64,000 nucleotides of DNA from contig JAVLKG010000008.1 of the NCBI GenBank assembly GCA_032128875.1, positions 211,212 through 275,211 on the forward strand, read 5' to 3'. A model generated the notes under the pieces. The model was not told the DNA's origin. It searched no databases and saw only the letters and a list, made by a program, of their open reading frames with translations. The position numbers and the translations under genes are program-made. Shown piece by piece: positions 1-51,564 of this stretch; the stretch's first letter is position 1, and every line of letters starts with the position of its first letter. The DNA is from Candidatus Melainabacteria bacterium 17Bon1m. Lineage in GTDB: Bacteria; Cyanobacteriota; Vampirovibrionia; Obscuribacterales; Obscuribacteraceae.

Positions 1-32
1 GGCTTTGCAAATCTACGTCTGAAGGTGGAAAT

Positions 33-2663
33 ATGACCAAGCGAAACGTCACGAAAGCGGAAGTTACCCCGCTTTACGCCGGTCTTCCTGAGAAGTATCG
101 GCTGGCTCGTGAGAGATTTGGACGCCCGCTTACGCTGGCTGAGAAGATTCTCTCCGCTCACCTTGACCGCTGGAACGAGGGCGAACAGCACCCGGTCCGC
201 GGCAAATCGCAGGTTTTCCTACGTCCCGATCGAATCGCCTTGCAAGATGCAACAGCGCAAATGGCGCTCTTGCAGTTCATGCAGGCGGACCTCGACAAGG
301 TCTATGTGCCGACTACCGTGCACTGCGACCACCTCATCCAGGCTCGCGTTGGTGCCAAGCTCGACTTGCTCAATGCGCTGGATTCCAACTCGGAAGTCTA
401 CGATTTCCTCAAGTCTGCCAGTACCAAATACGGTATCGGCTTCTGGAAGCCCGGCTCGGGTATCATCCACCAGGTGGTGCTGGAAAACTACGCGCACCCG
501 GGCTGTCTGATGATCGGCACCGACTCGCACACTCCCAATGCGGGCGGGCTCAACATGCTGGCTATCGGCGTTGGCGGTGCTGACGCGACATTCACGATGG
601 CTGGCGAACCCTGGGGTTTGCGGTGGCCGAAACTGATCGGTGTGAAACTGACCGGCAAGTTGAACGGCTGGGCCGCGCCCAAGGACATCATTCTCAAGCT
701 CGCCGGCATCCTCACCGTCGACGGCGGCACCGGTGCCATCGTCGAATATTTCGGCTCAGGCTGCAGTTCTATCAGCGCCACGGGCAAAGCGACCATCACC
801 AACATGGGCGCCGAGCTGGGTGCAACGACCTCCGTCTTCCCGCTCGACGACCACATCCTCGACTATCTGCGCCTGACCGGTCGTGGTGAAATCGCGGAGC
901 TGGCTTCGCAGTCGAAGCAGTATTTGACTGCGGATGCTGAAGTCGAAGCGGAGCCGGAGAAGTACTTCGACCAGGTGATCGAGATCGATCTCGACACTCT
1001 GGAACCGCACATTGTCGGTCCTCACACGCCCGACTTGGCGCGCCCGCTCTCGGCGTTCAAAGCCGAAGTCGCCGCCAAGGGTTACCCTGCCAATCTGCGC
1101 TACGCGCTCATCGGCAGCTGTACGAACTCAAGCTACGAGGACATGAGCCGCGCTGCATCCGTCGCACGACAGGCTGCGGAAAAGGGCTTGAAAGCGCCGG
1201 TCGGCTTCATGGTGACGCCGGGTTCGGAGCAGGTGCATCAGACCATCAATCGCGATGGACAGATGGCCGACCTCCAGTCCGTGGGCGCCAACGTGCTCGC
1301 GAATGCCTGCGGTCCGTGCATCGGACAGTGGCGTCGCGACGACATCAAGGAAGGCGAGCGCAACTCGATCATCACTTCCTTCAACCGCAACTTCCCACGT
1401 CGCAATGACGGCAACGCGGAAACACTGGCTTTCATCGCCAGTCCGGAGATCGTCACGGCATTCGCGCTGGCCGGCACTCTCGACTTCAACCCGCTTGAAG
1501 ACGAGCTCACCGCCGCCGACGGCAGCAAATTCAAACTGGCACCGCCACCGCAAGCGGGGCTGCCGGTGAAGGGTTTCAGCCAGCTGAGCGACTCCGAGCT
1601 TGGTTACGTCGATGCTGCCGAAGGGCGCAAAGACGGAGCTGTTCCCACCATCGCCATCGGCGAGAAAAGTGAGCGGCTGCAGGTGCTGTCTCCCTTCCCG
1701 CGCTGGAATGGCGAAAATACTTTCGACGCACTGCCGGTTTTGCTGAAGGCAAACGGCAAATGCACCACGGACCACATCTCCCCGGCGGGACCGTGGCTGA
1801 AGTACCGTGGTCACCTCGATCGTATCTCGGACAACATGTTCCTCGGCGCCAACAACGTGTTTACGGACAAACCAGGCACCGGCAAGGACGTCAACACGGC
1901 AGCGATTGGGAAACTGTCGGACATCGCGCGCGAGTACAAGAAGCAGGGTCTGGGCTGGGTTGTGGTCGGCGACCAGAACTACGGCGAAGGTTCCAGCCGC
2001 GAACATGCCGCCATGTCGCCGCGCTTCCTCGGCTGCAAGGTCGTGATCGCTCGCAGTTTTGCGCGCATTCACGAAACCAACCTGAAGCAGCAGGGCATAC
2101 TGCCACTCACCTTCTCCGACCCTGCGCATTACGACCTCATCCGCAGAGCGGATGACCGTATCTCTGTGCATGGGCTGAAGGACCTGGCAGTGGGCAAGCC
2201 CGTCAAGGTCTTCATCATTCACTCGGATGAAGTGACGGACGAAATCACCGCCAATCACACGCTCACCGAAGAGCAGATTGCCGTCTTCAAGGCGGGCTCG
2301 GCTCTCAATCACGTCGGCGATCGACGCAAGGCGGAAGCCGCGAAAGCCGACAAGCCTGCTGGCGCGGGCGCGAAACGCAACCCGAATTGCAAGTGCAAGC
2401 GTTGCGCTTGCGGCGACAAGAAAGGCAAGGCGGGCGAAACCGGCGCGAAGGGTGGCATGTGCGGCGACAAAACTCCGGCCGAGAAGCCGCGCGGCGATGC
2501 CAACGGTGACACCACAAATGGTGCTGTTCCTCCTGGAGGCAATGGCAACACTGGCATCACCAACAACGGCAAGTTCGGCAATCCGGACGCAAACCGTCCG
2601 GCGCCGGCTCGCGAGGAATCGCTACTGTCCCGCTTCTGGCGCTGGCTGACCAGCTGGTTCTAG
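33..2663 (+). CDS. acnA: Aconitate hydratase (mitochondrial-like AcnA family) with ~110-aa C-terminal extension
   Basis: Motifs [70 protein letters not shown]. Confidence 0.95.
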
Positions 2664-2672
2664 CCATCATTT

Positions 2673-2726
2673 GTAGGGGAGCCGCATGCGGCTCCCTGTT
2701 CAGGGCTGCGCATGCGCAGCCCCTAC
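2673..2726. repeat. REP doublet (REPIN-like), copy 1
   Basis: GTAGGGGAGCCGCATGCGGCTCCC-TGTTCA-GGGCTGCGCATGCGCAGCCCCTAC: two perfect palindromes, each half starting with GTAG on opposite strands; 9 nt after the acnA stop. Confidence 0.75.
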
Positions 2727-2887
2727 GCCGTGATGGGCAAATTTCTTGCAGGATTTTCTTCCGAAACGGGCGATGCATCGCGTCGTCCAAGGCTTTCCGA
2801 ACGGAGCGGCAAAAGTGTCGTTCCACTAGTTCGACTTTGAACAGGGTGATGCACCGCATTGCACTTTCAAAGCAACGGAGAAATCCC

Positions 2888-3949
2888 ATGACTAAAGTTT
2901 CAATTATCGGTGGCGCCGGTAACGTTGGTGCCACTGTCGCTCAGTATCTGGCGACAAAGAATCTCTGCGACGTCGTGATGCTGGACATCAACGAAGGCGC
3001 AGCCAAAGGCAAAGCTCTCGACCTGACGCAGGCAGTCGCTCTCACGGGCGGCAGCGCCAAGATCAAGGGCACGTCCGACTACAAGGACACTGCCAATTCG
3101 CAGGTGATCGTCATCACCGCCGGCAGCCCGCGCAAGCCCGGCATGTCGCGCGACGACCTGCTCAAGATCAACGCGAGCATCGTCGCCAACGCCGCGCGCG
3201 AATCGCACCGCTACTCTCCTAACGCCATCTTCGTCGTCGTGTCCAATCCTCTGGACGTGATGACTTATCTGGTCTGGAAGGAGACCGGCGTCTCGACGAG
3301 CCGCGTCATCGGCATGGCCGGCGTTCTGGACAGCGCACGTTTCCAGTCGTTCATCGCCGACGAGCTGAAGGTTTCCCCCGAAGACGTTCGCGCGATGGTT
3401 CTGGGCGGGCACGGCGACCTCATGGTTCCGCTGCCTCGTTTCAGCACTGTCAACGGCGTTCCCGTCACTGAGCTCATCAGTGCCAAGCGTCTCGAAGCGA
3501 TGAGCAAGCGCACCGCCAACGGTGGCGCCGAAATCGTCGAGCTGCTCAAGACAGGCAGCGCCTGGTACGCACCCGGCGCCGCAACCGCGCAGATGGTCGA
3601 AGCGATCATCACCGGCGGACGCAAGCTGTACCCTTGCTCGGTGCATACCGGCGAGAAGTATGGTTTGCCGGCAATCTTCACGGGTCTGCCCGTGATTCTC
3701 GGCAAGCGCGGCGTCGAGCGCGTGGTCAAGCTCAAGCTCAACAAGGCTGAGGTTGACGCGCTCAAGGCTTCGGCTGCTTCCATCGAGGCCAACGTGAAGC
3801 GGCTCAACGAGCTGCAGGCCGAGGCGGCGAAAGCTGCTGCGCCTGCTGCCGTTTCCCCCTCTGCCGCTACGCCCGTTACTGCCACCACTTCCGAGGCGCC
3901 CGCCCCGGAGGTTTCCACGAAAGCCGCGGACACAACGGCAAAGTCCTAA
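2888..3949 (+). CDS. mdh: Malate dehydrogenase (LDH-like MDH) with Ala/Pro/Thr-rich C-terminal tail
   Basis: KVSIIGGAGNVG Rossmann motif, TAGSPRKPGMSRDDLL, VSNPLD, LDSARF, VLGGHGD; start set at ATG 2888 after GGAGA. Confidence 0.95.
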   Translation: MTKVSIIGGAGNVGATVAQYLATKNLCDVVMLDINEGAAKGKALDLTQAVALTGGSAKIKGTSDYKDTANSQVIVITAGSPRKPGMSRDDLLKINASIVANAARESHRYSPNAIFVVVSNPLDVMTYLVWKETGVSTSRVIGMAGVLDSARFQSFIADELKVSPEDVRAMVLGGHGDLMVPLPRFSTVNGVPVTELISAKRLEAMSKRTANGGAEIVELLKTGSAWYAPGAATAQMVEAIITGGRKLYPCSVHTGEKYGLPAIFTGLPVILGKRGVERVVKLKLNKAEVDALKASAASIEANVKRLNELQAEAAKAAAPAAVSPSAATPVTATTSEAPAPEVSTKAADTTAKS

Positions 3950-4027
3950 CGGCTTCAGATGCGAACGCTTGCAGGGAGCGCAATTCCGCTTCCTGCAGGC
4001 GCGCACTGCGACGCAGGAGAAAATGAT

Positions 4028-5830
4028 ATGGAGCGACTAAAACTGATCATTCGGACGGGATGGCGATTTGCCGGTGGTTACCGCCTCGCCATACTGGGCT
4101 ACACCGTCCTCTTCATGATCGCTCAAGCGACAGCCCTTGCAGAGCCCTATCTTCTCGGGCTCATGCTCAACGCCGTGCAAAACGACCTCACCCAGGGTGC
4201 GGCCGGCAACCAACAGTTGCTGCACGATGTCATCTATTACACGAGTTTGTTCGTCGGACTGAAAGTGATCTTCTGGTCCATTCACGGTCCAACACGACTG
4301 CTCGAGCGTTATGTGGCGTTTCGAATTACGTACGCCTACAAAGCGCATATGTTCCAAACAGTCACCAACCTGCCCTTGAAGTGGCAGCGCGAGCACCACT
4401 CGGGCGAAAGCATCGACAAGATCAACAGAGCCTACAACGCTCTGTCAGACTTCTTCCAGGGCACCTTCGATATCACCTACATGGTGTGTCGTCTGGTCGG
4501 CACGCTGGTCATTCTGTATTACTTCATGCCGATGGCGATGTTGACAGTTGCCATCACTTCGGTTGCCGCGATGTACATCATTGTTCGCTTCGATCGAACG
4601 CTCTCGAAGCAGTATGACGAGCTGAACAAGAAGCAAAACTACATCGCAGAAGCCATTCACGATTACGTGACGAATATCGTCACGGTGATCACGCTTCGCC
4701 TCGAGAAGAAAACTCTCGAGGAAGTGAAGCGCCGCATGCTCATTCCGCTGCCGCTCTACAAATACAACAACGCTCTCAACGAGTGGAAGTGGGGTGTCAC
4801 GGCGGTGATGATCGCAGTCATGACTGGCGCGGTGCTCAGCTACTACACGTACAGCACCATCGCTGTCGGTGGCGCTATCATGGCGGGCACGCTGTTCACG
4901 CTGTTCGACTACCTGAGGCGAATTGGCGATTCGTTCTACAACTTCGCCTCGCAGTACGGTCGCATCGTGCGCATTGCAGCTGACGTTCACGCGGCGGATC
5001 TCATCCTCACCGACATGGACAACACGCCCAAGCCGCCTGCTGATGCGAAACTGCCCGAAGCCTGGAGGCAAGTTTCGGTGCAGAATCTCAGCTTCTCCTA
5101 CCAGGACAAAACCGACCGCCGAGTCAATCTCAACAACGTCGGAATCGAACTGGTGAAGGGCAAGGCAATTGCCATCGTCGGACAGTCGGGCAGCGGCAAG
5201 AGCACTCTATTGCGCTTGTTGCGCGGACTGGACAATTCCGATCAGGTGCGCGTCCTGGCTGATGGCGTTGTGCAGAAGCATCGCCTGCATCATCTCTCCG
5301 AGTGCACCACGCTGATGCCGCAAGATCCGGAAATCTTTGCCGATACAATCCGATTCAACATCGGCTTCGGCATGGAGAAGTCGGACGACGAGATCATGGA
5401 AGCTGTTCGCAATGCTCGCTTCGAATCGGTGTTGGCGCGACTCCCCAAGGGTCTCGACACCAACATCGCAGAGAAGGGCATTAATCTGAGCGGCGGCGAA
5501 AAGCAGCGGCTCGCCCTTGCGCGCGGCTTCTTCTTCGCGCGAGGCAGCGACATTCTCTTGCTCGACGAGCCGACCAGCAGCGTGGACACCGCCAACGAGC
5601 GCGTGATCTACAACAACCTGCTCGGCAATTTCCGCAAGGATCGCTGCGTGGTCTCGACCATCCACAAGCTACACTTGCTTGAGATGTTCGACGTCGTCTA
5701 CGTTCTGGACAACGGCAATCTCGTGGAGATGGGCTCGTTTACCGACCTCATCGCTGCGGACGGCAAGCTCGCAGAGCTCTGGAGAAACTATCAAGCAGCC
5801 TCGGCTTCGAGCGGAGAGATTCCGTCATAA
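4028..5830 (+). CDS. ABC exporter, fused permease/ATPase
   Basis: N-terminal TM helices; Walker A GQSGSGKS, signature LSGGEKQR, Walker B ILLLDEPT, H-loop; AGGAG RBS. Confidence 0.92.
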   Translation: MERLKLIIRTGWRFAGGYRLAILGYTVLFMIAQATALAEPYLLGLMLNAVQNDLTQGAAGNQQLLHDVIYYTSLFVGLKVIFWSIHGPTRLLERYVAFRITYAYKAHMFQTVTNLPLKWQREHHSGESIDKINRAYNALSDFFQGTFDITYMVCRLVGTLVILYYFMPMAMLTVAITSVAAMYIIVRFDRTLSKQYDELNKKQNYIAEAIHDYVTNIVTVITLRLEKKTLEEVKRRMLIPLPLYKYNNALNEWKWGVTAVMIAVMTGAVLSYYTYSTIAVGGAIMAGTLFTLFDYLRRIGDSFYNFASQYGRIVRIAADVHAADLILTDMDNTPKPPADAKLPEAWRQVSVQNLSFSYQDKTDRRVNLNNVGIELVKGKAIAIVGQSGSGKSTLLRLLRGLDNSDQVRVLADGVVQKHRLHHLSECTTLMPQDPEIFADTIRFNIGFGMEKSDDEIMEAVRNARFESVLARLPKGLDTNIAEKGINLSGGEKQRLALARGFFFARGSDILLLDEPTSSVDTANERVIYNNLLGNFRKDRCVVSTIHKLHLLEMFDVVYVLDNGNLVEMGSFTDLIAADGKLAELWRNYQAASASSGEIPS

Positions 5831-5894
5831 CGAGACGGTTCAAGACTCTCGAGAAGTCTCAAGAAGGGCTTCTGATTGAGTTCTGAAACTTCAT

Positions 5895-5946
5895 GGCGGG
5901 CGTCCCGATTCAAGGTTTTCCTTGGTCGGGGTGCCCGTCTTTTTTT
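5895..5946 (+). terminator. Intrinsic terminator after acnA-mdh-ABC
   Basis: GGCGGGCGTCCCGATTCAAGG / CCTTGGTCGGGGTGCCCGTC stem followed by T7. Confidence 0.75.
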
Positions 5947-6399
5947 GAGCCAGATGTTACTAGGCGTTATCGTACCTCCGAGAACCCCAAAAGCTCGCCC
6001 CACGTTAACACTCGCTAAGCTCGCGCAAATGCCACAGGTTCTACTTTTCAAGCTCACCGGCAACATTAGAGGGTATGAAACCCGCGCACAAGGTTAAGCA
6101 ACTTTCATATCCGCGCGAATGGTTTATTGCCGATCCGCGTGGGAGATCCCCCCTCATGATCGGTGTTTCTATTTACTTTTCGCTCGAATTTCATGACTCC
6201 CTATACCTAAGCTGAACGTACATGTTCTCTTGAATTTCAATTCTTCCAAAACCAACCACAGTCCATCATTCCTCCTTCAATCTGTGCTCACATCTGGGAC
6301 GTAAAGTCTTGGGTTCGCGCACTCTTTGGTGGATGAGCGATTCTGTAGCGGTTGTTGGAGAGAGAGCGTGCTGTTTCCAATCAACTGTGGAGAGATGCA

Positions 6400-8214
6400 A
6401 TGGAAAAGATTTCGATCAATCTCGTGGGTGGCGTTGCCGGCGATGCGGACTACGGTCTGCGTCTCTACAACGTCGGCAACGGCTTCGTCGGTTTCACCGG
6501 CAAGGTCGTCAGCCGCACTCACGATTCGATGTATCTCGGCTTCAGCTCGGAGCGCGCGTATACGGTCGCCGTCGAAGGTGACCTCGTCCTGTCGACCGAG
6601 ACCAACGATTCCTTCGTCGACAAGACGGATGGCGTCTATGGTTTCGACATCGACTGGAGCGATGCGGCGAAGAACTTCGGCAACGGCACCGGCAAGATCA
6701 TCGTGACCAACCCCGACTCCCCGAGCGACGTTTCGGTCGTCGAGGTATTCATGGGTGACACGCCGTCGGCTGTCGTCGAGTTCAAGCCGAACACGGGCAA
6801 CAACGGCACGGTCGTCATCCGCGAGGAGCTGGACGTCTCGGCCGTCGATCCCGTGATGAAGAAACTGCTCAAGGCGACCGACTTCAGCGACCCGTACGGA
6901 CTCGGCATCGAGTGCGTCGCGGCGCTGCTGCCGGTGCTCGAGTTCGACTATGGGCGTCTCTTCGACGTCACCATCAACCGGACGGAGAAATCCATGACCA
7001 ATCCCAAGGACAACGAAGGTGAAGGCATCATCGACGTTCTCATCGTCGACGGACCGACCATGCCCCTGGAGACGCTGAAGACCTTGCTCGACAGCGGCGT
7101 GCAGGTCTTCGTCGTCGGCGACAGCAACATGCCCGCCGGCGATGCGACGCGCATTGCGGATGAAAACGCCTTCTTCGCTGGCGTCGGCTTGGGTGAACGG
7201 ATCGACCATCCGTTCTGGGGACGTGACGGCATCGCGCCGGTGCTCGTCTCCGGGCTGTCGGACCTCGACGTGCTCGCACACGAAGTCCACCGCCCCTCGG
7301 ATGTCCTGGGCTTCGAGCGCATCGAGCACGCCGTTCTGCCCATCGGACCGATGGCTCACGACTTCGACCTCCCCTTCGGAGGTCACGCCGGAGCTGTTCG
7401 TGAGCCGTTCATGGACATCATCAGCATGCTGCCGGCACGCGCCTTCTGCGCACACAACCACGCGGGTGACTGCGCGCTCGTGGATGCGATGCTCGAAGGA
7501 TTCGGCGTCAAGCTGGGTCTGGAAGAGCTGCCGGAAGGTCTCGAGCGCGCCACGCTCAAAGACCTGATGGACAGCTACGGTGACGACGGTGTCAAGGTCG
7601 GTGGCGACAAGCGCGACTTCGGTCAGCTCGCTGGCACCCGGCAGAACGACATCAACAGCATCGCGCGGGCGGTCGCTGCGGCGGACGCTCTCGGCATCGA
7701 CACGAGCGACATCGCGTCCAAGCGCGACGAGCTTCTGGCGAAGCTGGCTGTGTTTTCCGATCGCTTCGAGGTCGGCGGCACGCACGAGGTGACGACGGAC
7801 GAAGCCGCCGTCATCAACACGGTGTTCGGCGAACTGTTCGGCATCCATCAGGAGCTGGACTCGTGCGTCTCGCACTGGCACCACTACAAGCAGCAGATCG
7901 AAGAGTCGCACAATCGCTGGTCGGCGGGTCTTGCCTCGCGCAAGCGCTCGTATCGCCTGGCGGACGACGCGCAGGACAACCGCATCGCGACGAGCTACGT
8001 CGACTATGCGGCCGCGCCGGAGGAAACCCTGGAGGCGAGCAAGACCGCGATGGTCGAGCTCTTTCAGGCGATCCAGCGGCGCGACCTGCGTGAGGCGAGC
8101 TTTACGGCCACCAAGGCGCGGCAGTTCAGCACGCGCGAGCACATGCTCGCCTCGCTGATTCGCCGCAACGTGCTGGTGCCCGTCGAGGAATCAGGGGTCT
8201 CCGCGGCTGCCTGA
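6400..8214 (+). CDS. Hypothetical protein (N-terminal domain paralogous to 8362..9009)
   Basis: Long ORF, strong codon bias, GGAGA RBS; shares RAYTVAVEGDLVLSTET and GVYGFDxDWS with the next gene. Confidence 0.85.
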   Translation: MEKISINLVGGVAGDADYGLRLYNVGNGFVGFTGKVVSRTHDSMYLGFSSERAYTVAVEGDLVLSTETNDSFVDKTDGVYGFDIDWSDAAKNFGNGTGKIIVTNPDSPSDVSVVEVFMGDTPSAVVEFKPNTGNNGTVVIREELDVSAVDPVMKKLLKATDFSDPYGLGIECVAALLPVLEFDYGRLFDVTINRTEKSMTNPKDNEGEGIIDVLIVDGPTMPLETLKTLLDSGVQVFVVGDSNMPAGDATRIADENAFFAGVGLGERIDHPFWGRDGIAPVLVSGLSDLDVLAHEVHRPSDVLGFERIEHAVLPIGPMAHDFDLPFGGHAGAVREPFMDIISMLPARAFCAHNHAGDCALVDAMLEGFGVKLGLEELPEGLERATLKDLMDSYGDDGVKVGGDKRDFGQLAGTRQNDINSIARAVAAADALGIDTSDIASKRDELLAKLAVFSDRFEVGGTHEVTTDEAAVINTVFGELFGIHQELDSCVSHWHHYKQQIEESHNRWSAGLASRKRSYRLADDAQDNRIATSYVDYAAAPEETLEASKTAMVELFQAIQRRDLREASFTATKARQFSTREHMLASLIRRNVLVPVEESGVSAAA

Positions 8215-8361
8215 CGGCGAGCAGGACATTCGTGCCCTGTTCGAAAAGGAGGTGACTGTGGTTTTGGCCACCGTCACCTCCTTCTAAACGCAAAGCTCCG
8301 CTTTGCGCAGCGGTGTGGAAATCCTTCTGCACTGCAACTTCTGATGATATGGAGAGGAACT

Positions 8362-9009
8362 ATGATCGACAAACTCGGAATCAATCTCGTCGGCGACATC
8401 GAGCACTCGACCCGCCTGTACAACCGCGGTGAAGGCTTCCGCGCCATGACCGGCAGCATCGCCTGCACGCCCGGCGACTGCATGTACCTCGGCTTCATCG
8501 CCGATCGCGCCTACACCGTCGCGGTGGAAGGCGACCTCGTTCTCTCGACCGAAACGGCCGATTCGCGTCCCGACCAGATGGCGGGCGTGTACGGCTTCGA
8601 CGTCGACTGGAGCGAAAACGCGAAGCAGCGCGGCTGCGGCGCCGGCAAGATCACCATCACCAATCCGAACGCGCCGGGCGAAGTCTCGGTGTTCACGGTG
8701 CGGATGGCGGCGACGCAGTCGGTGGTCGTGAAGTTCGCCAAGGACACGGGCACCAACGTGCGCGTTGTTCTGGGCGCCGACTCCGACCTCAGCAAGGTGG
8801 AGCGCGAGATCGGGCTGCTGCTGCGCGGTCCCGACGTTCAGCCCGGCGAAGTGCGCGTCAACGCCACGGCCGAGCCGATGGACCGCACATCCGTGCGGCG
8901 TGCGATGGAGCGCGGTTCGTCGCGTCCCTCGGGCTTCATCCCGCAGGACGTGAGCGACCACTGGAGCGGTGCCGACGTCAGCCAGCTGCGCCGGAACATC
9001 CTCTCCTGA
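8362..9009 (+). CDS. Hypothetical protein, paralogue of the N-terminal domain of 6400..8214
   Basis: GGAGAGG RBS; clear similarity over ~130 aa to the upstream gene. Confidence 0.85.
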   Translation: MIDKLGINLVGDIEHSTRLYNRGEGFRAMTGSIACTPGDCMYLGFIADRAYTVAVEGDLVLSTETADSRPDQMAGVYGFDVDWSENAKQRGCGAGKITITNPNAPGEVSVFTVRMAATQSVVVKFAKDTGTNVRVVLGADSDLSKVEREIGLLLRGPDVQPGEVRVNATAEPMDRTSVRRAMERGSSRPSGFIPQDVSDHWSGADVSQLRRNILS

Positions 9010-9170
9010 GGAGCCTGCAGACGCGGATGAGCATGTTGATTTGAACAATCGACATCCGCATGGGAGGCGGCAGAAGCTTCGGCGCTGCCGTCTCCCACCA
9101 GTGCGTCGGAAGGAGCTCACCTTCTGACTGAGTGCATAGATATCTGCAACACAAACCGAAGAGGCTAGAA

Positions 9171-9617
9171 ATGCACAAGACCCTGAAAGACTTCCTCGCC
9201 GCCGTCCTCGTCGACGAGACGGACAAGCTCGCCCAGCGCGCGCTGAAAATCCACTTCGCCTGCATCGGCGCCAGCGGTCTCATCGCCAACGCGCACGAGC
9301 GCGGCGACGGCGAGGCCTACACGGAAGTCTGCAAGGCGCACTACGAAGCGTCGCTCGCCTTCCTCGCCGTCAACACGGCGAAGGACTACGACTTCGCCGC
9401 CGAGGTCGTCGAGCAGTTCGCCGTCGACGCGGTCGAAACCGACCAGCCGGCCGCGGTCGCTGCGTTCTTCGTCGGCAAGGCGGAGAACACCATCGACACC
9501 TACGCCAAGCGCTGCGCGCCGGTCGCCCGCATCCGCGGCTGCAACAGCGTTCGCATCCTCCGCGGCGAGCACGCTCGCCACGCGATGCGCGGTGTGGTCG
9601 TCGCCAACGCGGCCTAA
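9171..9617 (+). CDS. Hypothetical protein
   Basis: GAGG RBS, strong C/G third-position bias. Confidence 0.8.
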   Translation: MHKTLKDFLAAVLVDETDKLAQRALKIHFACIGASGLIANAHERGDGEAYTEVCKAHYEASLAFLAVNTAKDYDFAAEVVEQFAVDAVETDQPAAVAAFFVGKAENTIDTYAKRCAPVARIRGCNSVRILRGEHARHAMRGVVVANAA

Positions 9618-9935
9618 GCAGTGAGCAACGGCGGCAGCGAAGCGGTCACCAAATACGGTGCCCTCCAGCTGTCGCCGCAGCTTGTCTCCGAGTTGCATGC
9701 ACGAAGGACTCCACCGTTCTAGTCGAGGCACGCTCTCGGGCGCGCTTTCGCTGGTGCGGTGTCGAACGAGATGCAATGCCAATACTTGCCTAGGCAACGC
9801 AGCTTGCTCTTCACGCACTCTGAGCAGGTTCCACTCTGCTCAAGAACCGGCATCACTAGTCCGGATGCCAAAATGCAACATGCGGCCGCTGAATCTCCCG
9901 TGCGGAGTTCATGCTGCATAACATCGGAGCATTCG

Positions 9936-10388
9936 ATGACCTCATCGAATCACGCATTTACTCTCGACCGCGCCGTCATCGCCCAAGCCATCCTGGCCGG
10001 CGAAGATAAGCGCAAAGACCGCATCGAGCAAGAAGCTCACGATCGCGAAATGGAGCTTCGGCGCCAGATTGCGGAAGCGCCTCGCCGCGCTGCCGAAATC
10101 TTGAGCGGGCTGCCCGACGCGATTGCGCATGTGGTCGGCGTCGCTGACGAAACTCCGCAGTCGTTCGTGGTCATGTGGGTCCAACCGCATGAATACGAAG
10201 GCAACGTGGAGCGCGACTTGGGTTTGGGCTTCCGCGGTCCCCACCAGGGTCTGCCGGAATCACTGAAGTTGGCAGCGCGTCAGGTCTATGACGCTCTGGA
10301 CAATTTGCAGCCCGAACTCATCTACAAGTCGAAGGGCGAACCGCTGTCCGGCAAGGGTCAGCTGGCCATCGTCATTCGACTCAGCTAA
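9936..10388 (+). CDS. Hypothetical protein
   Basis: GGAG RBS before ATG 9936; co-oriented in operon; biased codons. Confidence 0.75.
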   Translation: MTSSNHAFTLDRAVIAQAILAGEDKRKDRIEQEAHDREMELRRQIAEAPRRAAEILSGLPDAIAHVVGVADETPQSFVVMWVQPHEYEGNVERDLGLGFRGPHQGLPESLKLAARQVYDALDNLQPELIYKSKGEPLSGKGQLAIVIRLS

Positions 10389-10555
10389 GCATTACTCAGA
10401 ATCTGAGTTAACCGCTTAGTCGACAGTCGAGGAACTCTCGACGTGTTAAGGAATCGCGCGCTCAGCTCCTTGGAGTGCGCGATTCCAGCAAAGGCTGTAT
10501 CTGTACAACTGAGTTGTTACAGAACAGGGCAATTCAAACATGACAAGGTGCCTCC

Positions 10556-11539
10556 ATGACAAATGGTAAAACCAAAGGACATCGACTTCAGGAAGAACTC
10601 TTCCGCTGGTACGTTACCGTCTTCCGTGGCGATAACTGCGGTGAGACTACTCCGACGGCGCAGAGGCTGAATGGCCTCAAGCACCACGTTGAAGTCCTCA
10701 TCAGAGCAGGCTGGACACTCACGATGAGTGCAGACAACTCGCCAGCAGACAAGGCCGGCGTCGACTTCATCTGGGAAAACCCCAGCCGCGGATGGTTCCC
10801 GCTCGACGCCAAAGCGATGGGATCGACGAGCTGCCGTCTCATCACGCAAGTACACGTCGGCAACAACACTGATGCCGGCGAGTTCAAGCAACTGCGTTTC
10901 GAGGACAGAATCGCGTTCCTCGAAACGCTGGTCAACCTGGCTCGCTCGGGTCGCCCCGTCAGCCATGCCTGCTGCCCGCCTCCCGGCGTCACTCCGGTGG
11001 CGGCGGCCCAGCTTCTCGATGGACTGAAGAAGCTCGAGCGGCAACTCGAAAAGTCGGCGTCTTGCGACGAACGGCTTGGCGAGTGGGCAGTTGCCCTGGG
11101 CAAAGCGATCGGGTACCAAAAGCGACAGGTACGCGGTGGTCCTAGCGAAGAGGCGACATCGTCGGCGCAGAAGCTCATCGCTTCGGCGATCGATGCATTC
11201 TTCGTGTCGTTTCTCAACGGCAACAACGTCACCTTCGCATCGCAGCAAATGCGCTTGCAGCCCAACCTCCGCCGCCACGACCGACTCCAGTATCTCTTCA
11301 CTGGCGACGTCATCAAGGCGACGGTCGGCAATGCGCAAGAGCTCGTCGTCCTCTCCGGATTGGCGTCGCTCATCAAGAAGCGTTTCGAAGCGCGCTACAG
11401 CGAGCTGATCGGGCTGCACCGCAGCGCCGACTGGCTCATGCAGCGCAAGCGCACCTTCGAGACGAAGGGTGTGGAATGCGTCATCCATGCGGTTCTCGAC
11501 GCGTTCCAACGGCAGTCGGGCGCACGCCGCGCGGCGTAG
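10556..11539 (+). CDS. Hypothetical protein, possible PD-(D/E)xK nuclease-like N-terminal domain
   Basis: 327-aa ORF with AAGGTG RBS; ADKAGVDFIW...WFPLDAK resembles a D...DxK core (function uncertain). Confidence 0.75.
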   Translation: MTNGKTKGHRLQEELFRWYVTVFRGDNCGETTPTAQRLNGLKHHVEVLIRAGWTLTMSADNSPADKAGVDFIWENPSRGWFPLDAKAMGSTSCRLITQVHVGNNTDAGEFKQLRFEDRIAFLETLVNLARSGRPVSHACCPPPGVTPVAAAQLLDGLKKLERQLEKSASCDERLGEWAVALGKAIGYQKRQVRGGPSEEATSSAQKLIASAIDAFFVSFLNGNNVTFASQQMRLQPNLRRHDRLQYLFTGDVIKATVGNAQELVVLSGLASLIKKRFEARYSELIGLHRSADWLMQRKRTFETKGVECVIHAVLDAFQRQSGARRAA

Positions 11540-11610
11540 CCTCAGGCCCGACAAGCAGCAACAGGGGGCGCAAGTCCCCTGTCCCTCAACCCAAAACCGG
11601 CAAAACCAAC

Positions 11611-11841
11611 ATGCCAAAGTGTCCTCCGCCTGCAATCTCAGGAACGCGTTCTCCACGGCCGCGCCTACTACTCGAAGCGTTCGTGCTGCTCTGCGTGGCT
11701 GTCGTCGCTGTCTGCGCCGGCATCGCCGCGCACTCTCCGCAGTGGCACAACGTGTGCTTGCTCATCGGCGCGCTCGTCATGATTCCGATGTGTTGGGCTG
11801 CTGAACGCACGCTCGACACGTCGCAATCGACGAACTCCTGA
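11611..11841 (+). CDS. Small two-TM membrane protein
   Basis: Two hydrophobic segments; last gene before a hairpin and pyrimidine tract; start uncertain. Confidence 0.5.
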   Translation: MPKCPPPAISGTRSPRPRLLLEAFVLLCVAVVAVCAGIAAHSPQWHNVCLLIGALVMIPMCWAAERTLDTSQSTNS

Positions 11842-12211
11842 ACTCGAGCATCAAGAAGAAACTGGAAACCGGCAGACAAGGCGCCTTTCAAGAGCGCCAT
11901 CTGCCTGCTCTCCTCTCTCTTCTTTTTTCAAAACATTTCTACTGCTTGCTTTAGTATATCCCGCAAAACCAGCCGACAATCTTCTGGATGCCCCAGAGAG
12001 ATTGCCGGCCGCGTTTCAATTGCTAATTGCTAGCATTCACAAGCCCAACTTCGAGGCGGACAAGTGCAGATGTATTCTCTCTCCTTTACGAAAACCGGTC
12101 CGCCAGGAGTAGCAACGATCATGGGCGGACGTTGAGCTCTCGGCGTGAAAGCAGTCCTTACAGGACCGGCCGGAGTGGAAAACTTCCTCAATGGCACATC
12201 TTCTGCCGCTT

Positions 12212-12775
12212 TCAAAAGCATGGCAAATTCTCCCAATTGTTTACTCTGTGGGACGTGTGACACTTCTTTCCGAAATTCCGCACCACAGTTCCAACCGGAA
12301 CTCGAAACTCCTGCACCTTCAGAACATCACGATCAGGTATGAAGAGTGCCCAGTTGTAGAGAAACGACTCACGATCGGGCTCATTAACGATCGTGCGCCA
12401 GTAACCGATATGCATAAGTGATGGGTCTTCGATAATATCCACCCGAGAGTCAGCCGGCACCTCACGACTGTGGCCCACGGCGTCGTCGAGCAGAGAGAAT
12501 CGGTAGGTGGGTCCCCTGCCGATGTTATCCGTACCATAGAGAAAAAAGCCGATCTCTCCCCGGAAATGTACAGTACGCACGAGCGCGGACTCTTGAGAGA
12601 CAACCTCCTTACGCGGCAGCAAACAACTGATAGACATTGCCACCAACGCACCACTCAAAATGCCGAAATACACACCGACAATTTGCCCGAGCAAGATTTC
12701 CCAAAAGCGCCCGCCCCAAGCGCCTACAAGCCCGAAGTAGCCACCTATGAATACGAAAAGGCAAACCGTGTTCAT
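12212..12775 (-). CDS. Hypothetical membrane-anchored protein
   Basis: Two N-terminal hydrophobic helices then a soluble domain; AAGGG upstream of ATG 12775. Confidence 0.65.
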   Translation of the reverse strand: MNTVCLFVFIGGYFGLVGAWGGRFWEILLGQIVGVYFGILSGALVAMSISCLLPRKEVVSQESALVRTVHFRGEIGFFLYGTDNIGRGPTYRFSLLDDAVGHSREVPADSRVDIIEDPSLMHIGYWRTIVNEPDRESFLYNWALFIPDRDVLKVQEFRVPVGTVVRNFGKKCHTSHRVNNWENLPCF

Positions 12776-13413
12776 CTGAATTTCCCTTCTTTGGATTTTG
12801 CAGTTTGATTCTGTTCGGACCCTGCTATGCAAGTTCCGCTGTGCAAACGCGCTTTGCACCCGATCAGTTGATTAAACGAAGATTGGTTTTTTCAACATCG
12901 TCTTTCTCCTTTCTAGAACGAGCCGCGCAATCTAAAACAGCCACACCGATTGAGACTTATAGTCCTCGGCACAGCTTTAGATAGTTGCGCAATAGAGCCG
13001 ATAAAGAGAGCGTGCGGTCCAATTTCGACGATAGTCGATTCGAACTTTTTCAGAGTCGGTGCGCTGCTTTATCTTCTCAGGTGATGGTGCTCTCAAACAT
13101 TCCAATGGCTCGTTTGTCGTCAGAATAGCGGGCAGCTCCGCTCTGATGCAAATATCGAACTCGATACGCTCAGCTCGATTTCATGGTGGTCTTTGGGATT
13201 ATCCAAGCTGATCTTCGACTGTACACCAATCAATTTTTTTCGCGCCAGCTCATGAACGTTTTCACGCACTTTCCACTCCCTTCGCGTGAAAACAACGTCG
13301 AATGCGAACACAGTTATCGTTCAACGATATTTTTCACAGCTAAACAAAATCCTTTATTCCGCCAGCTTCGCGTCATTAGGTTCGAATCATGGCAAATTTA
13401 GGAGAACGGTGCG

Positions 13414-13701
13414 ATGAGAAAAATTGTTGCAGCCAGCTGTCTGATCTTTGCTGCATGCTCATGGATTGTCGGAAGTGGTGCATTCAGCGAAACGAATTGG
13501 AATAACAATTATGTTCCAATCCGCCATTTAGGAGCAGACGAAGAAGAAAACTTGCTTCTTGAAGAACTGAGAATCTTGAAAAAGCTTGACCAACTTTGTC
13601 TCGACCTCAAAGAAGTGCAAAGAAAAATAGAAGACGAGCGGCGCAAGTTGGATGAAATTCGTCATCGATTGTCGTGCATGAAATACAAACGCACTTATTA
13701 A
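13414..13701 (+). CDS. Hypothetical secreted coiled-coil protein
   Basis: AGGAG RBS, signal-peptide-like N-terminus, heptad-like C-terminus. Confidence 0.6.
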   Translation: MRKIVAASCLIFAACSWIVGSGAFSETNWNNNYVPIRHLGADEEENLLLEELRILKKLDQLCLDLKEVQRKIEDERRKLDEIRHRLSCMKYKRTY

Positions 13702-13879
13702 CTAAATCAGTGTTTCAGGCTTCCGATGGCGCTCTTACATACCGCGTGGAAACGGCGTGAATTCATCTGCAAGTTGAACGAAGAGAAAGCACAGGCTTGA
13801 AACTTGCTAAACCGCAGTTGTAAGTCTTACTGAACAACTCCCAAATTGATATATTGTTTGCGGGCAAGTGGAAACTTTG

Positions 13880-14563
13880 ATGAAAAGACTCTTGATCGTC
13901 GATGATGATGTTCGCTTCGCGCGAGAATTGAAAGACGCACTCGAGCACAACGACTGCTTCGTCGATGTCGTTACTTCTGGTGCAGACTGCCTGCGCGCCC
14001 TGCAACTGGCAAAATTCGATTTCATTCTGCTTGATTGGAATCTTGACGATATCACTGGCGTCGAGGTTTGCAGAAGATTTCGCGAATCGGGCGGCAAAAC
14101 ACCAATTATTTTCTTGACAGGAAGAAGTGAAATTACAGACAAAGAGACCGGTCTGGATGCAGGCGGCGACGACTATCTCACTAAGCCTTTCGATGTACGA
14201 GAATTGATGGCGCGCTTGCGCTCCGTGGAAAGACGCGTCGTTAATTTCGAGCGCGAATCATTCAGCTTCAAAGGACTAGAACTCAATCCAGCGCTAAGAA
14301 TGGCCAGTTACGAAGGTCGCAAAGTCAGCTTGTCCAACATGGAGACAGAAGTTTTGATGCTGCTGATGCAGAATCGCGACCGCTATATGTCCGCCTCTGA
14401 AATCTATTCCCTTTTGTGGCCTGAGGGGTCGGGCTCCCACGACATAGTGCGCAGCCATATAAAACTTCTGCGACGCAGGCTTTCGAAAATTGGCGCGGAA
14501 AATTTGGTAGAAACAAAAGCAGGAGTCGGTTACATTCTCATAAGCGCAGAGCGCGATCAGTAA
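13880..14563 (+). CDS. OmpR/PhoB-family response regulator
   Basis: LLIVDDD, LLDWNL, DDYLTKPF, C-terminal wHTH ending GVGY. Confidence 0.93.
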   Translation: MKRLLIVDDDVRFARELKDALEHNDCFVDVVTSGADCLRALQLAKFDFILLDWNLDDITGVEVCRRFRESGGKTPIIFLTGRSEITDKETGLDAGGDDYLTKPFDVRELMARLRSVERRVVNFERESFSFKGLELNPALRMASYEGRKVSLSNMETEVLMLLMQNRDRYMSASEIYSLLWPEGSGSHDIVRSHIKLLRRRLSKIGAENLVETKAGVGYILISAERDQ

Positions 14564-14586
14564 ATCCAAAGTAAGGAAGAGCCAAA

Positions 14587-16023
14587 TTGCAAATTCGCGT
14601 TCTTCACAAGGGTATGATCTTCCTTTTCATCGCGGCGCTCCTGGTCGGAGTTTTTTTCTTTCGGACATACCAACTCGCCAGCAAAGCCTCAGCCATAGCA
14701 GCTAAAGATCTTCAACTCGCCCATCTTGTAGATATCCTCGATGAAACCACGATCGAATTTGCCAATGGACTAGCCGACTTTAGCCAGAACGTTTTTTCTA
14801 GAAGCCCAGATAATCCGCATCCCAAGGCGCACCGCGAAAAGATCCAATCGCTTTTGAAAGAGGCGCGTAGTCTTATTGGCGAGTCGAATGTTGATCCGTC
14901 GATTATTTCCGAAGTGGAAACGCTTTCACTAGAGCAATACAATCTTCTAATTTCTACCAAGCCCGGCGCTGACAATTCCAGGGCAACCAGCATCCAGACA
15001 TTTCTGGACTATATGCCGAGGGCGAAGAAATTAGGTTCTAAGATTTTGGAATTGAGAAATCGACTTTTGGCAGAACGCAAAACTCTCGAGAACTTGCGAG
15101 AAGAAGCGCATGAGACTACCGAACAAATGAAGGCACAGACGGTAATCGGATTGGCTTGCGCGGCGCTGTTCCTGATAATACTGGCGGTCTCATTCTTGCA
15201 GGACATAACCAAACGACTCAATTTACTGATGGAAAATGCAAAACTCCTGCCTGGAGGCAGGTCTCTGCCAAATACTGTTTCAGGCAGCGATGAAATTGCC
15301 TACCTCGATCAAGTATTGCATTTGGCATCACAGCAGCTGCAGCGTGCCGCCGAGCATCGCAAATCGATGGTTCAAATGCTAGCGCACGACATTCGTGGTC
15401 CGATAGCTTCTTCGAAGTTGAGCCTTGCCACACTCTCTCGCACTGAAGATCCCAAGCAAGCAGTATCAAGCATAAAATCTGCAGAAAACGATCTAAACCG
15501 CGCTGTTGTTCTTTTGGAAGATTTGCTCACCATAGATAGACTGGAGGCAGGAAAGCTAGACCTGGAAATAGCGCCCATCGAACTGCACACACTAATTGCT
15601 CAAGTGACAGAGGCTCTTGCCACTCTGGCGTCTGCAAAAGGGATCGAGATAGCGGTCGCCAGTGAAGAGCCCATTGTCATCGAAGGAGACAGGGCAAGGC
15701 TGATGCAGGTTCTGCAAAACCTGATCATAAACGCGATCAATCACTCAGACAAGTCAACGACCATTACGATCAGCTACAGTCAACAACCCGACCACACAAA
15801 GATTTGCATAAAAGATTGCGGCAAGGGAATCTCCAGAGAGAATCAAGCGCAAATCTTCGACCCTTTTGTGCAAGCAGAACAGCAAGGCAAAAATGGATTC
15901 GGATTAGGACTGGCCATATGCAAAAGGCTCGTGGAGGCACACGAAGGCGAACTTGGTTTTGATTCCAAAGAGGGCGAGGGAACGACCTTTTGGGTCAAAC
16001 TTCCAAGGGAAGCTGATGTCTAG
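14587..16023 (+). CDS. Membrane sensor histidine kinase (HAMP-HisKA-HATPase)
   Basis: Two TMs, H-box LAHDIRGP, N-box QVLQNLIINAI, DCGKGI, GFGLGLAIC; TTG start. Confidence 0.92.
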   Translation: MQIRVLHKGMIFLFIAALLVGVFFFRTYQLASKASAIAAKDLQLAHLVDILDETTIEFANGLADFSQNVFSRSPDNPHPKAHREKIQSLLKEARSLIGESNVDPSIISEVETLSLEQYNLLISTKPGADNSRATSIQTFLDYMPRAKKLGSKILELRNRLLAERKTLENLREEAHETTEQMKAQTVIGLACAALFLIILAVSFLQDITKRLNLLMENAKLLPGGRSLPNTVSGSDEIAYLDQVLHLASQQLQRAAEHRKSMVQMLAHDIRGPIASSKLSLATLSRTEDPKQAVSSIKSAENDLNRAVVLLEDLLTIDRLEAGKLDLEIAPIELHTLIAQVTEALATLASAKGIEIAVASEEPIVIEGDRARLMQVLQNLIINAINHSDKSTTITISYSQQPDHTKICIKDCGKGISRENQAQIFDPFVQAEQQGKNGFGLGLAICKRLVEAHEGELGFDSKEGEGTTFWVKLPREADV

Positions 16024-16037
16024 GCGGTCGCGTTTAC

Positions 16038-18251: not shown

Positions 18252-18385
18252 CTAAAAGACTTAGCTTCCGATAAAAACATTCAGAAGAAGACTTCTTCTG
18301 AGTTTATATATAAGAGCATACAGAGGCAGTTTAGAGTGCCTTATAAATTAGGGCATACAGGTGTTTCAATTTCCTTGCCCGTTCC

Positions 18386-18439
18386 GTAGGGGAACCGCAT
18401 GCGGCACCCTGCCAGAGTGGCGCATGCGCCGCCCGTTAC
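18386..18439. repeat. REP doublet (REPIN-like), copy 2, degenerate
   Basis: GTAGGGGAACCGCATGCGGCACCCTGCCAGAGTGGCGCATGCGCCGCCCGTTAC; same 54-nt length and CGCATGCG cores as 2673..2726; 8 nt past the stop of 18448..19128. Confidence 0.65.
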
Positions 18440-18447
18440 AGGAAAGC

Positions 18448-19128
18448 CTACTCTTTGCCATCCCAGCGATAGCCGGAGCCACGAACGGTAGTGAGCGGGC
18501 ATTTTCCCGAAGCGTCCGTCAACTTGCTGCGCACTCTGCCGACAGCGACTCGCACAGCCGCGACACTTGCATCCTCCGCATCAGGCCAAACTCTCGCCAT
18601 TAGCGCTTCCGGCGAAAACACTTCACCCGGGTGTCGCATAAGAAATTCCAGCAGGTCATATTCGCGCGGCGCCAGGTTCAACTCCTTTCCGTCAAAAGTC
18701 GCTGAGTGCCCGGCCTTCTCGATCTCAATCGACTCGGACTTAATCGCCTCCACCTCCACCTGATTAGCTCTCCTGAGAAGTGTTCTTATACGAGCAGAAA
18801 GTTCACCCGCCGCAAACGGCTTCGTCAGATAATCATCGGCACCGGCGTCCAGTCCGGCAATGCGATCTTCGATGGTTTCGCGAGCAGTTAAGAGCAGGAT
18901 AGGTATTTTCTTGTTCTTCTCACGCACGCGCTTGCAGACCTCAATGCCGTCCATCTTCGGCATCTCCCAGTCCATTACCACGCAATCGAACGGGTAACTG
19001 AGCAAAAGTTCGAGGGCTTGCTCACCATCGCGAGCTGTTTCCACCACATGGTGGTCCTCATGCTTAAGCCATGCCGAAAGCATTACAAGCAAGCTGTAAT
19101 CGTCATCAGCCAGTAATACTTTTGCCAT
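18448..19128 (-). CDS. OmpR/PhoB-family response regulator
   Basis: VLLADDD, VMDWEMP, GADDYLTKPF, TVRGSGY. Confidence 0.93.
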   Translation of the reverse strand: MAKVLLADDDYSLLVMLSAWLKHEDHHVVETARDGEQALELLLSYPFDCVVMDWEMPKMDGIEVCKRVREKNKKIPILLLTARETIEDRIAGLDAGADDYLTKPFAAGELSARIRTLLRRANQVEVEAIKSESIEIEKAGHSATFDGKELNLAPREYDLLEFLMRHPGEVFSPEALMARVWPDAEDASVAAVRVAVGRVRSKLTDASGKCPLTTVRGSGYRWDGKE

Positions 19129-19290
19129 GGAAAAACGCTCTCGAGACCCCTTTAACTATATCTGCCACGGGCTGGTGGCAATACTGCGCCGGTTTGCGGC
19201 GAAGATAACGAAATTGTGGCAGGGCATTCACCAAGCCGTTAACTTCGCAACATATTCTCAAGGAGTTGCTACCCCCTGGAGTACACGATT

Positions 19291-25876: not shown

Positions 25877-25923
25877 CAGTGGAAGCCGACTGCACGTCGA
25901 GGTGCAACCGGTCGCATTTGCGG

Positions 25924-27066: not shown

Positions 27067-27189
27067 CCTGAATCTCCAACGTCTCTCCTTGTGAAACAAA
27101 GCCGGCTGGGTGGAGAGCAAACCCAGCCCGGCATGATGAGTCAACCTTGCGTACGACGCGCGCGTCAGTCTGGCCGACGCGGCGAAGTA

Positions 27190-27567: not shown

Positions 27568-27735
27568 GGTACATCTCCTACTCTTGAGCCAAGCAGCATC
27601 CGGCCGCTTGCTCTCGTTGCCTAAAAAACGCCGAACACAATCCGGCAGCGAGATAGTTCGAAAGCATTACCAAGCCTGAGCGCAAGCGAACTTGCGCCCA
27701 GGCTTGGCTTGTCAGGTTAGATTAGGGCGAACACT

Positions 27736-28636: not shown

Positions 28637-28708
28637 CGTCGTCATCCTTATCGTTCTGAGAAGCTCGGGCGGAATTGCCCGAGCCGGTAATCGTGAGCTG
28701 CCAGCGCC

Positions 28709-51496: not shown

Positions 51497-51564
51497 CGAG
51501 CCGGCCAACAATACGGCTCGCCAACAACAAGCGGCTCCGCCGCCCAACCTAGAAGGAGGCTGAC

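Follow-up and report, generated by a model that had tools for sequence, protein, structure and literature searches.

Stem-loops between genes that take part in RNA processing and stabilisation are known from selective RNA processing and stabilisation (SRPS) and similar cases. These include the puf operon of Rhodobacter, the hairpins of repetitive extragenic palindromic (REP) elements in malEFG of E. coli, the RNase III sites in the early mRNA of phage T7 and the 3' inverted repeats of chloroplasts. REP elements are known mRNA stabilisers. Here we describe stacks of RNA hairpins in the spacers of one compositional class of genes (class H, as opposed to class L) in Candidatus Melainabacteria bacterium 17Bon1m, a member of the Obscuribacterales. 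Our starting point is the spacer at positions 8215-8361 of a stretch of 64,000 nt (contig JAVLKG010000008.1 of assembly GCA_032128875.1, positions 211,212 to 275,211 of the forward strand). This whole stretch is referred to as the window, and all coordinates are those of the window.

Among the closest described systems is the cip-cel operon of Ruminiclostridium cellulolyticum, where intergenic stem-loops act as cleavage signals and stabilise transcript ends, according to the accessible text (PMC10311766). PNPase and RNase II are stopped by stable structures, as stated in the accessible part of another paper (PMC10989914). Clusters of hairpins less than 15 nt apart and within 80 nt of the stop codon, for which a poly-U tract is 'not necessary', are described in the accessible sections of Gupta and Pal 2021 (PMC8355165). 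The BATTER study, in its accessible portion, reports that 3' stem-loops are conserved across bacteria; when the study was searched for Melainabacteria, Vampirovibrionia and Obscuribacter, no mention was found (PMC13613805). Our literature search, which covered open-access papers and preprints, found no paper describing hairpin stacks in this lineage.

Like the SRPS cases and cip-cel, the class-H spacers hold GC-rich stem-loops without U-tracts between co-directional genes, at both ends of each cistron. As in SRPS, blocking of exonucleases is plausible, and the nucleases are encoded here. Unlike in those systems, the stem-loops occupy about 90% of the spacers (227/251) of a whole compositional gene class, often in stacks of 2-5 unique stems. 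Hairpins that stabilise intercistronic RNA are already known; what is new is that the stacks are restricted to one gene class, of genome scale, non-repetitive and tied to a bimodal composition.

A stack of four hairpins in the spacer 8215-8361

Folding was done with ViennaRNA, and minimum free energies (MFE) were compared with those of shuffled sequences. The sense (+) strand of the spacer folds at -69.6 kcal/mol (z -6.77), and none of 200 shuffles folded as well. The antisense strand reaches -59.5 kcal/mol (z -5.21). A preliminary description, made from the sequence without database searches, had placed four consecutive stems in this spacer. The predicted fold reproduced them exactly (hairpins 1 to 4, Table 1) and added a weak fifth stem, which overlaps the Shine-Dalgarno sequence.

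The same description had reported the pattern from further spacers of the window, each with unrelated sequence. All nine listed spacers, 8215-8361 among them, proved to be over-structured, with sense z-scores of -3.3 to -7.6 (30 shuffles each). The sense MFE is below the antisense MFE in 9/9, and the sense z-score is the more negative one in 7/9. The UUCG loops claimed for hairpin 9061-9097 and for the sense strand of 27568-27735, with a G.U pair in the latter, are all present. The sequences are indeed unrelated: a search of the genome with the spacer 8215-8361 returned nothing but the spacer itself.

Hairpins of class-H genes across the genome

The genome comprises 7.55 Mb in 35 contigs (GC about 49-50%, 93% complete). 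Gene GC content has two modes, one near 49% and one at 61-62%, so the division into classes H and L that the preliminary description had drawn is real. Gene calls, starts, class labels and spacer limits were obtained with our own ad hoc two-class codon model with start refinement, in which the GC contents of the three codon positions had to follow GC3 > GC1 > GC2. The start-codon caller rewards Shine-Dalgarno words equally in both classes, and the model reproduced the earlier spacer limits at 4028, 8362, 9171, 38579 and 39739. Class H makes up 541 of 5980 gene calls, with a GC3 of 0.7-0.9. These genes are concentrated on eight contigs with a total of about 1.6 Mb (C5, C7, C8, C13, C15, C18, C19 and C23) and are interleaved with class-L genes at a scale of 5-10 kb. 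A REP-like repeat family is common to H-rich and H-poor contigs, which argues against a binning artefact.

Neighbouring class-H genes form 341 co-directional pairs versus 18 convergent and 21 divergent ones (about 90% on the same strand). The gap between them has a median of 142 nt and measures at most 30 nt in only 11% of cases (32% for L-L pairs). GC3, Shine-Dalgarno use and gene order all set class H apart from the rest of the genome; for example, about 20% of class-H genes are preceded by AAGGAG, whether they lead an array or lie inside one, versus 6% of class-L divergent genes.

Every co-directional H-H spacer with a length of 50-300 nt was folded (251 in total), and 400 sampled from 1585 L-L spacers served as comparison. 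A crude terminator score (stem of at least 5 bp plus a T-run) did not discriminate. MFE-based counts were used instead, with a strong hairpin defined by at least 7 bp and an energy of -10 kcal/mol or lower. H-H spacers fold 0.106 kcal/nt below dinucleotide shuffles, versus 0.026 for L-L spacers, and the excess is larger than 10 kcal/mol in 72% of the former and 15.5% of the latter. Strong hairpins number 1.70 per H spacer versus 0.47 after shuffling, and 0.52 versus 0.24 for class L. Class-H spacers are over-structured relative to class L, at a level that shuffled sequence does not equal. At least one strong hairpin occurs in 227 of the 251 H spacers, at least two in 126 and at least four in 16. 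One or two are typical, and four-stem spacers such as 8215-8361 mark the high end. The hairpins have a median of 12 bp and about -17 kcal/mol, and a third of them reach at least 15 bp.

Their position was then considered. The density of perfect stems with 8 bp or more is 1.30 per kb in co-directional H spacers, 0.74 in co-directional L spacers, 2.37 in convergent L spacers and 0.12-0.17 in coding sequence. For extended stems, the H values are 1.97 (co-directional), about 1.6 (convergent) and 0.33 (divergent), with a coding background of 0.31. A strong hairpin lies within 150 nt after the stop codon in 81-92% of class-H genes, whatever follows downstream. The corresponding class-L values are 35% (co-directional) and 60% (convergent). 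The low density in divergent spacers and the hairpins after the stop codon in every context indicate that the hairpins are a 3'-side property of class-H cistrons. The first strong hairpin begins a median of 22 nt past the stop codon, successive ones are separated by a median of 14 nt, and 20-55 nt usually remain between the end of the last one and the start codon. This last distance is below 50 nt in 69% of the 227 spacers and below 35 nt in 54%. In the 101 H spacers with a single hairpin, the distance of the stem from the stop codon is no more constant than its distance from the start codon, a neutral outcome.

Selection on the sense RNA

Mismatches were counted in stems of at least 9 bp with single mismatches. 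On the sense strand of H spacers we found 65 G.U, 10 A.C and 16 other mismatches. The G.U:A.C ratio is 77:35 in L spacers; in coding sequence it is 142:166 for class L and 41:32 for class H. The composition of the sense strand predicts 0.89:1 (p ~1e-12 for 65:10). The 29 tetraloops in H spacers include six UNCG loops on the sense and none on the antisense strand, and six GNRA loops on the sense and one on the antisense strand. Selection on the coding-strand RNA, as suggested in the preliminary description, thus shows in the mismatches (65:10), in the strand bias of these loops (12:1) and in compensatory changes in relatives (see below). The G.U bias and the loop orientation point to a function as coding-strand RNA and argue against a role at the DNA level. 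That the hairpins are selected in the sense RNA is strongly supported.

The stems could also be seen as DNA-level or mobile palindromes (REP/REPIN-like elements, attC sites or cruciforms), or as a by-product of GC richness or foreign origin. It is true that a REP-like family exists and is present in 19-22 of the 251 H spacers, that the genome gives a weak Y1-transposase match, and that class H is distinct in GC3, Shine-Dalgarno use and gene order. However, 223 of the 251 H spacers have no non-self BLAST match in the genome, and the separate REP-like family accounts for 19-22 of the 28 that do. The orientation of wobble pairs and loops on the sense RNA, the excess over dinucleotide-preserving shuffles and the conservation of the MDH gene described below, which speaks against recent import, also disagree with this explanation. 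We consider it largely refuted and very improbable.

The stems resemble REP elements, bacterial interspersed mosaic elements (BIME) and REP doublets forming hairpins (REPIN) in being intergenic palindromic hairpins that are sometimes tandem. Unlike those repeated families they are unique, and a true REP-like family coexists with them in the genome. This REP/REPIN-like palindromic repeat has a GCATGC centre and is found in the window at 2667-2726, where it fills the H spacer 2664-2887, and at 18386-18411. With up to 4 mismatches allowed it gives 239 strand-hits, which corresponds to about half as many elements because the repeat is palindromic. There are 96 inverted neighbours within 120 nt. 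Both gene classes have the repeat, mostly in their convergent and co-directional spacers. The single weak Y1-transposase match is on contig C12.

An integron attC array was tried as well. The core-site consensus of attC is R''(RYYYAAC)...R'(GTTRRRY), and it is the bottom strand that folds. Such a pair was found in only 1 of the 251 H spacers, and it is the sense (top) strand, not the bottom one, that shows the wobble bias, so this candidate was rejected.

Conservation in related genomes

The orthologous spacer was compared between this genome and four genomes of the same genus that contain the full-length gene. Beyond these four, the 104 family genomes searched gave only shorter, lower-identity or paralogous matches. 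All four congeners have four hairpins in the same order. In a MAFFT alignment of the spacer, 87.9% of cells pair, and 13 of 37 pairs show compensatory double changes versus 4.5 +/- 1.7 in shuffles (0/500 reach 13). Sliding the partners by 1-3 columns leaves 2-5 compensatory pairs. These five sequences are related and not independent, so we regard the covariation as indicative.

The four hairpins differ in how they are kept. Hairpin 1 has a counterpart at the same place in the four congeners, with compensatory changes in 3/9 pairs; for hairpin 2 the figure is 9/17 pairs among the five genomes. At the place of hairpin 3 each of the four congeners carries a hairpin of different sequence, which the MAFFT/RNAalifold consensus misses. 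Hairpin 4, finally, is conserved in sequence in the five genomes, two G.U pairs included, and its motif occurs once in the genome. The second junction (9010-9170) behaves like the first one in the congeners. Its UUCG hairpin 9061-9097 is conserved in sequence and structure in five genomes, and about 40 nt between its last hairpin and the start codon (9128-9170) are near-identical in four of five congeners. Mostly, however, the hairpins vary freely in sequence among congeners.

The MDH gene of the window could be followed over a larger distance. A GC3 of 0.70-0.83 was found in 11/11 Obscuribacterales loci, down to 69% protein identity, and a hairpin after the stop codon in 10/10 loci that reach past it. 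Compensatory changes affect 5/23 pairs of this hairpin in a set of five loci and 5/15 in a set of three, so that covariation in relatives, a check suggested in the preliminary description, was found both here and at 8215-8361. For MDH, then, the feature is at least order-wide. The closest relatives of the protein are encoded in metagenome-assembled genomes that carry the label Candidatus Obscuribacterales or Melainabacteria; photosynthetic cyanobacteria come next, with about 55% identity. Since GC3 and hairpin are kept throughout the order and the next relatives are photosynthetic cyanobacteria, the gene was not recently imported.

The hairpins 8310-8335 and 9061-9097, conserved in sequence in five genomes, may be specific protein-binding or regulatory sites. 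They speak for an explanation in which the hairpins regulate the downstream gene in cis, as translational operators, as structures that sequester the Shine-Dalgarno sequence, as temperature or ligand leaders, or as sites for an RNA-binding protein, such as one with an S1 domain. The weak fifth stem over the Shine-Dalgarno sequence of 8362-9009 and the location of S1-domain genes in H regions fit in with it. (Relatives of the S1-domain gene were sought among genome contigs; none of 393 pattern matches was confirmed.) As a general explanation it appears improbable, because most hairpins are free to vary in sequence, divergent H spacers, which are purely 5', are not enriched, and the last strong hairpin typically ends 20-55 nt ahead of the start codon and leaves the Shine-Dalgarno sequence uncovered. 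An Rfam search of the window gave no match at the gathering score either, and only two chance-level ones at E<=0.5 (plant miRNA and archaeal snoRNA models).

Termination or stabilisation

In co-directional H spacers, 7% of the stems with 9 bp or more are followed by at least 6 T within 10 nt (antisense side 4%). With a threshold of at least 5 T in 8 nt, U-tails follow 10% of the hairpins inside H runs, 21-32% of those that close an H run and 17% of those at convergent class-L ends. In the region 1-12500 we found six terminator-like sites, none of them in a spacer. The preliminary description had stated that the stems lack poly-U. This is correct for most of them but fails for some, such as one stem in 27568-27735, which is followed by UUUUUU. 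The conclusion drawn there, that these are not typical intrinsic terminators, agrees with the rarity of U-tracts, but the argument loses weight since convergent class-L ends are also U-poor. U-tails are scarce genome-wide, and the absence of a U-tract alone does not exclude termination. The hairpins share with canonical intrinsic terminators a stable GC-rich stem soon after the stop codon, and UNCG and GNRA loops are frequent in them. They differ in that about 90% have no U-tract, and in their long stems, their tandem arrangement and their location inside same-strand arrays with little room for downstream promoters.

It is therefore possible that the stacks are intrinsic terminators that work without a U-tract, the 'hairpin clusters', and that each class-H gene is its own transcription unit in a lineage without Rho. 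The presence of a hairpin after 81-92% of H genes in every context, convergent ends included, is what this explanation predicts, and the rarity of tight H-H gaps (11% of at most 30 nt versus 32% for L-L) is consistent with it, as is the rarity of U-tailed hairpins even at convergent class-L ends. The geometry also agrees. The arrangement given in the accessible sections of PMC8355165 has at least two hairpins, spaced by less than about 15 nt and no further than about 80 nt from the stop codon, with no need for poly-U; the class-H medians are 14 nt and 22 nt. That model, as set out there, refers to inter-operon regions and slopes of RNA-seq coverage, whereas here the likeness is one of sequence geometry and concerns co-directional genes of one class. 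A gene for Rho was not found in the 93%-complete genome (best match 34.6 bits versus a cut-off of 509), so a role of the stems in shielding RNA from Rho, which the preliminary description had raised, is not supported. Cyanobacteria are stated to be without Rho in the accessible text of a 2025 preprint, according to which canonical terminators explain a minority of the transcription units of Synechococcus elongatus; how transcription ends in these Rho-less relatives is largely unexplained there (PMC12642595). This, like the missing Rho gene, adds to the plausibility of U-independent termination.

Several observations speak against separate transcription units. A promoter and a leader with a Shine-Dalgarno sequence would have to fit into less than 50 nt in 69% of the spacers, while divergent H spacers, where promoters must be, lack such hairpins. 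About 90% of H-H neighbours share a strand, and the share of hairpins with a U-tail is 2-3 times higher where an H run ends (21-32%) than within it (10%). The spacers and array leaders have no promoter word in common: k-mer enrichment in 186 upstream regions leading H arrays, against 1942 class-L divergent regions and 284 internal H spacers, returned only AAGGAG(A). A consensus scan of 1-12500 gave no sigma-70-like site on the + strand and one on the minus strand. A search for a T7-like RNA polymerase gave no match in the genome, but the control genomes gave none either, which makes this negative uninformative. To our knowledge, all bacterial RNA polymerases tested, mycobacterial ones included, need a U-tract for efficient intrinsic termination. 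On balance, we regard U-independent termination as the main rival account of the stacks, though a rather doubtful one.

The reading we favour, with about an even chance of being right, is that the hairpins at the cistron ends of polycistronic arrays stop 3' exonucleases and direct processing in the way known from SRPS. Processing or stabilising elements had also been proposed in the preliminary description. The spacers of long same-strand class-H arrays would be transcribed within the sense mRNA, so that each cistron would be followed by one to five unique and very stable RNA hairpins. RNA polymerase would largely read through them. This is suggested by the common orientation of the arrays, the little promoter room after the stems, the divergent spacers without stems and the enrichment of U-tails at run ends only. 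RNase E/G, RNase J or RNase III could then cut in the short single-stranded linkers, and the hairpins would stall the 3'-to-5' exonucleases PNPase and the RNB-family enzyme; all five of these nucleases are encoded in the genome. The hairpins may also cap the new 5' ends. Each cistron would end up as a separately stabilised message, possibly in combination with partial termination, as the stabiliser and terminator readings are not mutually exclusive. What the data establish are the structures with their excess over chance, class specificity, strand-specific selection and conservation, and it is from these that read-through, processing and stabilisation are deduced. The count of 341 co-directional versus 39 other H-H pairs and the 69% of spacers with less than 50 nt after the last hairpin lend indirect support to a single transcription unit, in which the genes would be co-transcribed.

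A number of points weigh against stabilisation. Gene calls, starts and class labels rest on the ad hoc codon model and not on a validated gene finder. The hairpins are only loosely anchored to the stop codon, with 57-60% lying nearer the stop than the start. Some H spacers, such as 27568-27735 and the one between prkA2 and the DUF444 gene, do have U-tailed hairpins, and the scarcity of U-tracts does not separate H hairpins (10%) from presumed class-L terminators (17%). The sequence conservation of hairpin 4 could reflect a DNA site instead, and the conserved 40 nt after the last hairpin of 9010-9170 could be an internal promoter or leader element. Finally, four public runs labelled TRANSCRIPTOMIC RNA-Seq hold 0.99-1.00 of the sampled words of the stretch and may be its source sample, but over 1-20000 they behave as DNA (contigs of 38-148 kb with flat depth over both strands and classes). 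A single contig break, at 8272/8278 within hairpin 2, reflects no more than the assembly.

Genes and spacers of the window

The features of the window are collected in Table 1. The gene upstream of the four-hairpin spacer encodes a product without Pfam, NCBIfam or PHROG match. Its N-terminal part is paralogous to the product of the downstream gene (53% identity over a domain of about 155 aa), and this shared domain has no match in the three databases either. Orthologues of the downstream gene were found in 5/12 genomes of the genus and, at E<=1e-40, in 8/104 genomes of the family, spread over 2 genera; both counts include this genome.

Table 1. Coordinates of hairpins, flanking genes, spacers and class-H blocks in the window
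Feature	Coordinates	Strand	Remarks
Hairpin 1	8218-8243	+	UUCG loop; begins 3 nt past stop codon
Hairpin 2	8246-8283	+	16-17 bp stem, strongest of the four
Hairpin 3	8289-8307	+	8 bp stem
Hairpin 4	8310-8335	+	11 bp stem; ends 26 nt before start codon
Upstream class-H gene	6400-8214	+	604 aa, GC3 0.83; codon-model call
Downstream class-H gene	8362-9009	+	215 aa; Shine-Dalgarno sequence GGAGAGG precedes start
Spacer between MDH and ABC transporter genes	3950-4027	+	one long hairpin; z -3.7
Spacer with three hairpins	9010-9170	+	z -5.5; central hairpin 9061-9097 with UUCG loop
Spacer with several hairpins	10389-10555	+	z -6.1
Spacer with 18 bp UUCG hairpin and one hairpin followed by UUUUUU	27568-27735	-	z -3.3
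Spacer with four hairpins	29465-29641 (codon-model limits 29384-29641)	-	z -7.6 sense, -1.8 antisense
Spacer with about five hairpins, one with UUCG loop	30044-30267	-	z -3.3 sense, -0.4 antisense
Spacer with about five hairpins, downstream of S1-domain gene	38580-38821	-	z -5.2
Spacer with several hairpins, upstream of S1-domain gene	39740-39967	-	z -3.3 sense, -0.7 antisense
Class-H blocks	~1-11600, 25900-30800, 38200-44200, 47100-55400, 58300-60000

The class-H products of the window include aconitase, MDH, an ABC transporter, GH57, beta-amylase, a GSP13-like S1-domain protein, an OsmB-like lipoprotein, an S41 peptidase and a T4 Rnl1-like RNA ligase, together with many that have no family match. 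The RNA ligase protein (638 aa with a T4 Rnl1-type domain, encoded at 53491-55407 on the minus strand in a class-H block) matches PHROG 562 with an E-value of 1e-55. Its gene adjoins a weak sigma-70-like open reading frame at 52737-53351. A phage origin of class H was rejected, the RNA ligase being the only one among 28 window proteins with a strong PHROG match.

Outside the window, 105 genes of the eight longest H runs, located on contigs C5, C7 and C19, were searched against Pfam. These runs contain two PrkA genes followed by DUF444 and SpoVR, sets of Bat/MoxR, DUF58 and VWA genes, and a full Ter cluster. They also hold genes for ClpB, Band 7, AIM24, several peptidases, citrate synthase, pyrophosphatase, SIR2 and NUDIX proteins. 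About half of the class-H genes examined had no Pfam match. Each spacer that separates tandem TerD genes, or a prkA from a DUF444 gene, has 2-4 hairpins, the last stem lying 15-25 nt before the Shine-Dalgarno sequence.

Because of this gene content, enzymes of the TCA cycle and of glycogen degradation included, and because ribosomal proteins belong to class L, class H looks like a stress or starvation set rather than one of genes highly expressed during growth. This label presumes that the families have the roles they have in model bacteria. The class-L membership of ribosomal proteins also means that the composition of class H is not the result of codon optimisation of growth genes.

Meaning of the class-H hairpins

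In one gene class, about 85-90% of the members are followed by a sharply defined and maintained RNA signal, independent of the particular sequence, that is far rarer elsewhere in the genome. This signal links a bimodal gene composition to a post-transcriptional feature. The contrast between the classes provides an internal control, together with hundreds of natural variants, for the roles that U-less hairpins may have in terminating, pausing, processing or protecting transcripts. If the stabiliser reading is true, the stems would be ready-made, non-repetitive insulator and stabiliser parts for operon design.

It is tempting to go further and to see in class H a regulon for stress, starvation or dormancy, made of long-lived messages that combine GC3-rich coding sequence, strong Shine-Dalgarno sequences and exonuclease-proof stacks. 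There would then be two mRNA architectures in one genome, selected order-wide, with the hairpins as the main 3'-end signal of a lineage that lacks Rho and has few canonical terminators. At present this extension is speculative and rather unlikely to hold in full. The source of the hairpins is a non-photosynthetic sister lineage of the cyanobacteria, and the finding thus bears on how transcripts end and survive without Rho.

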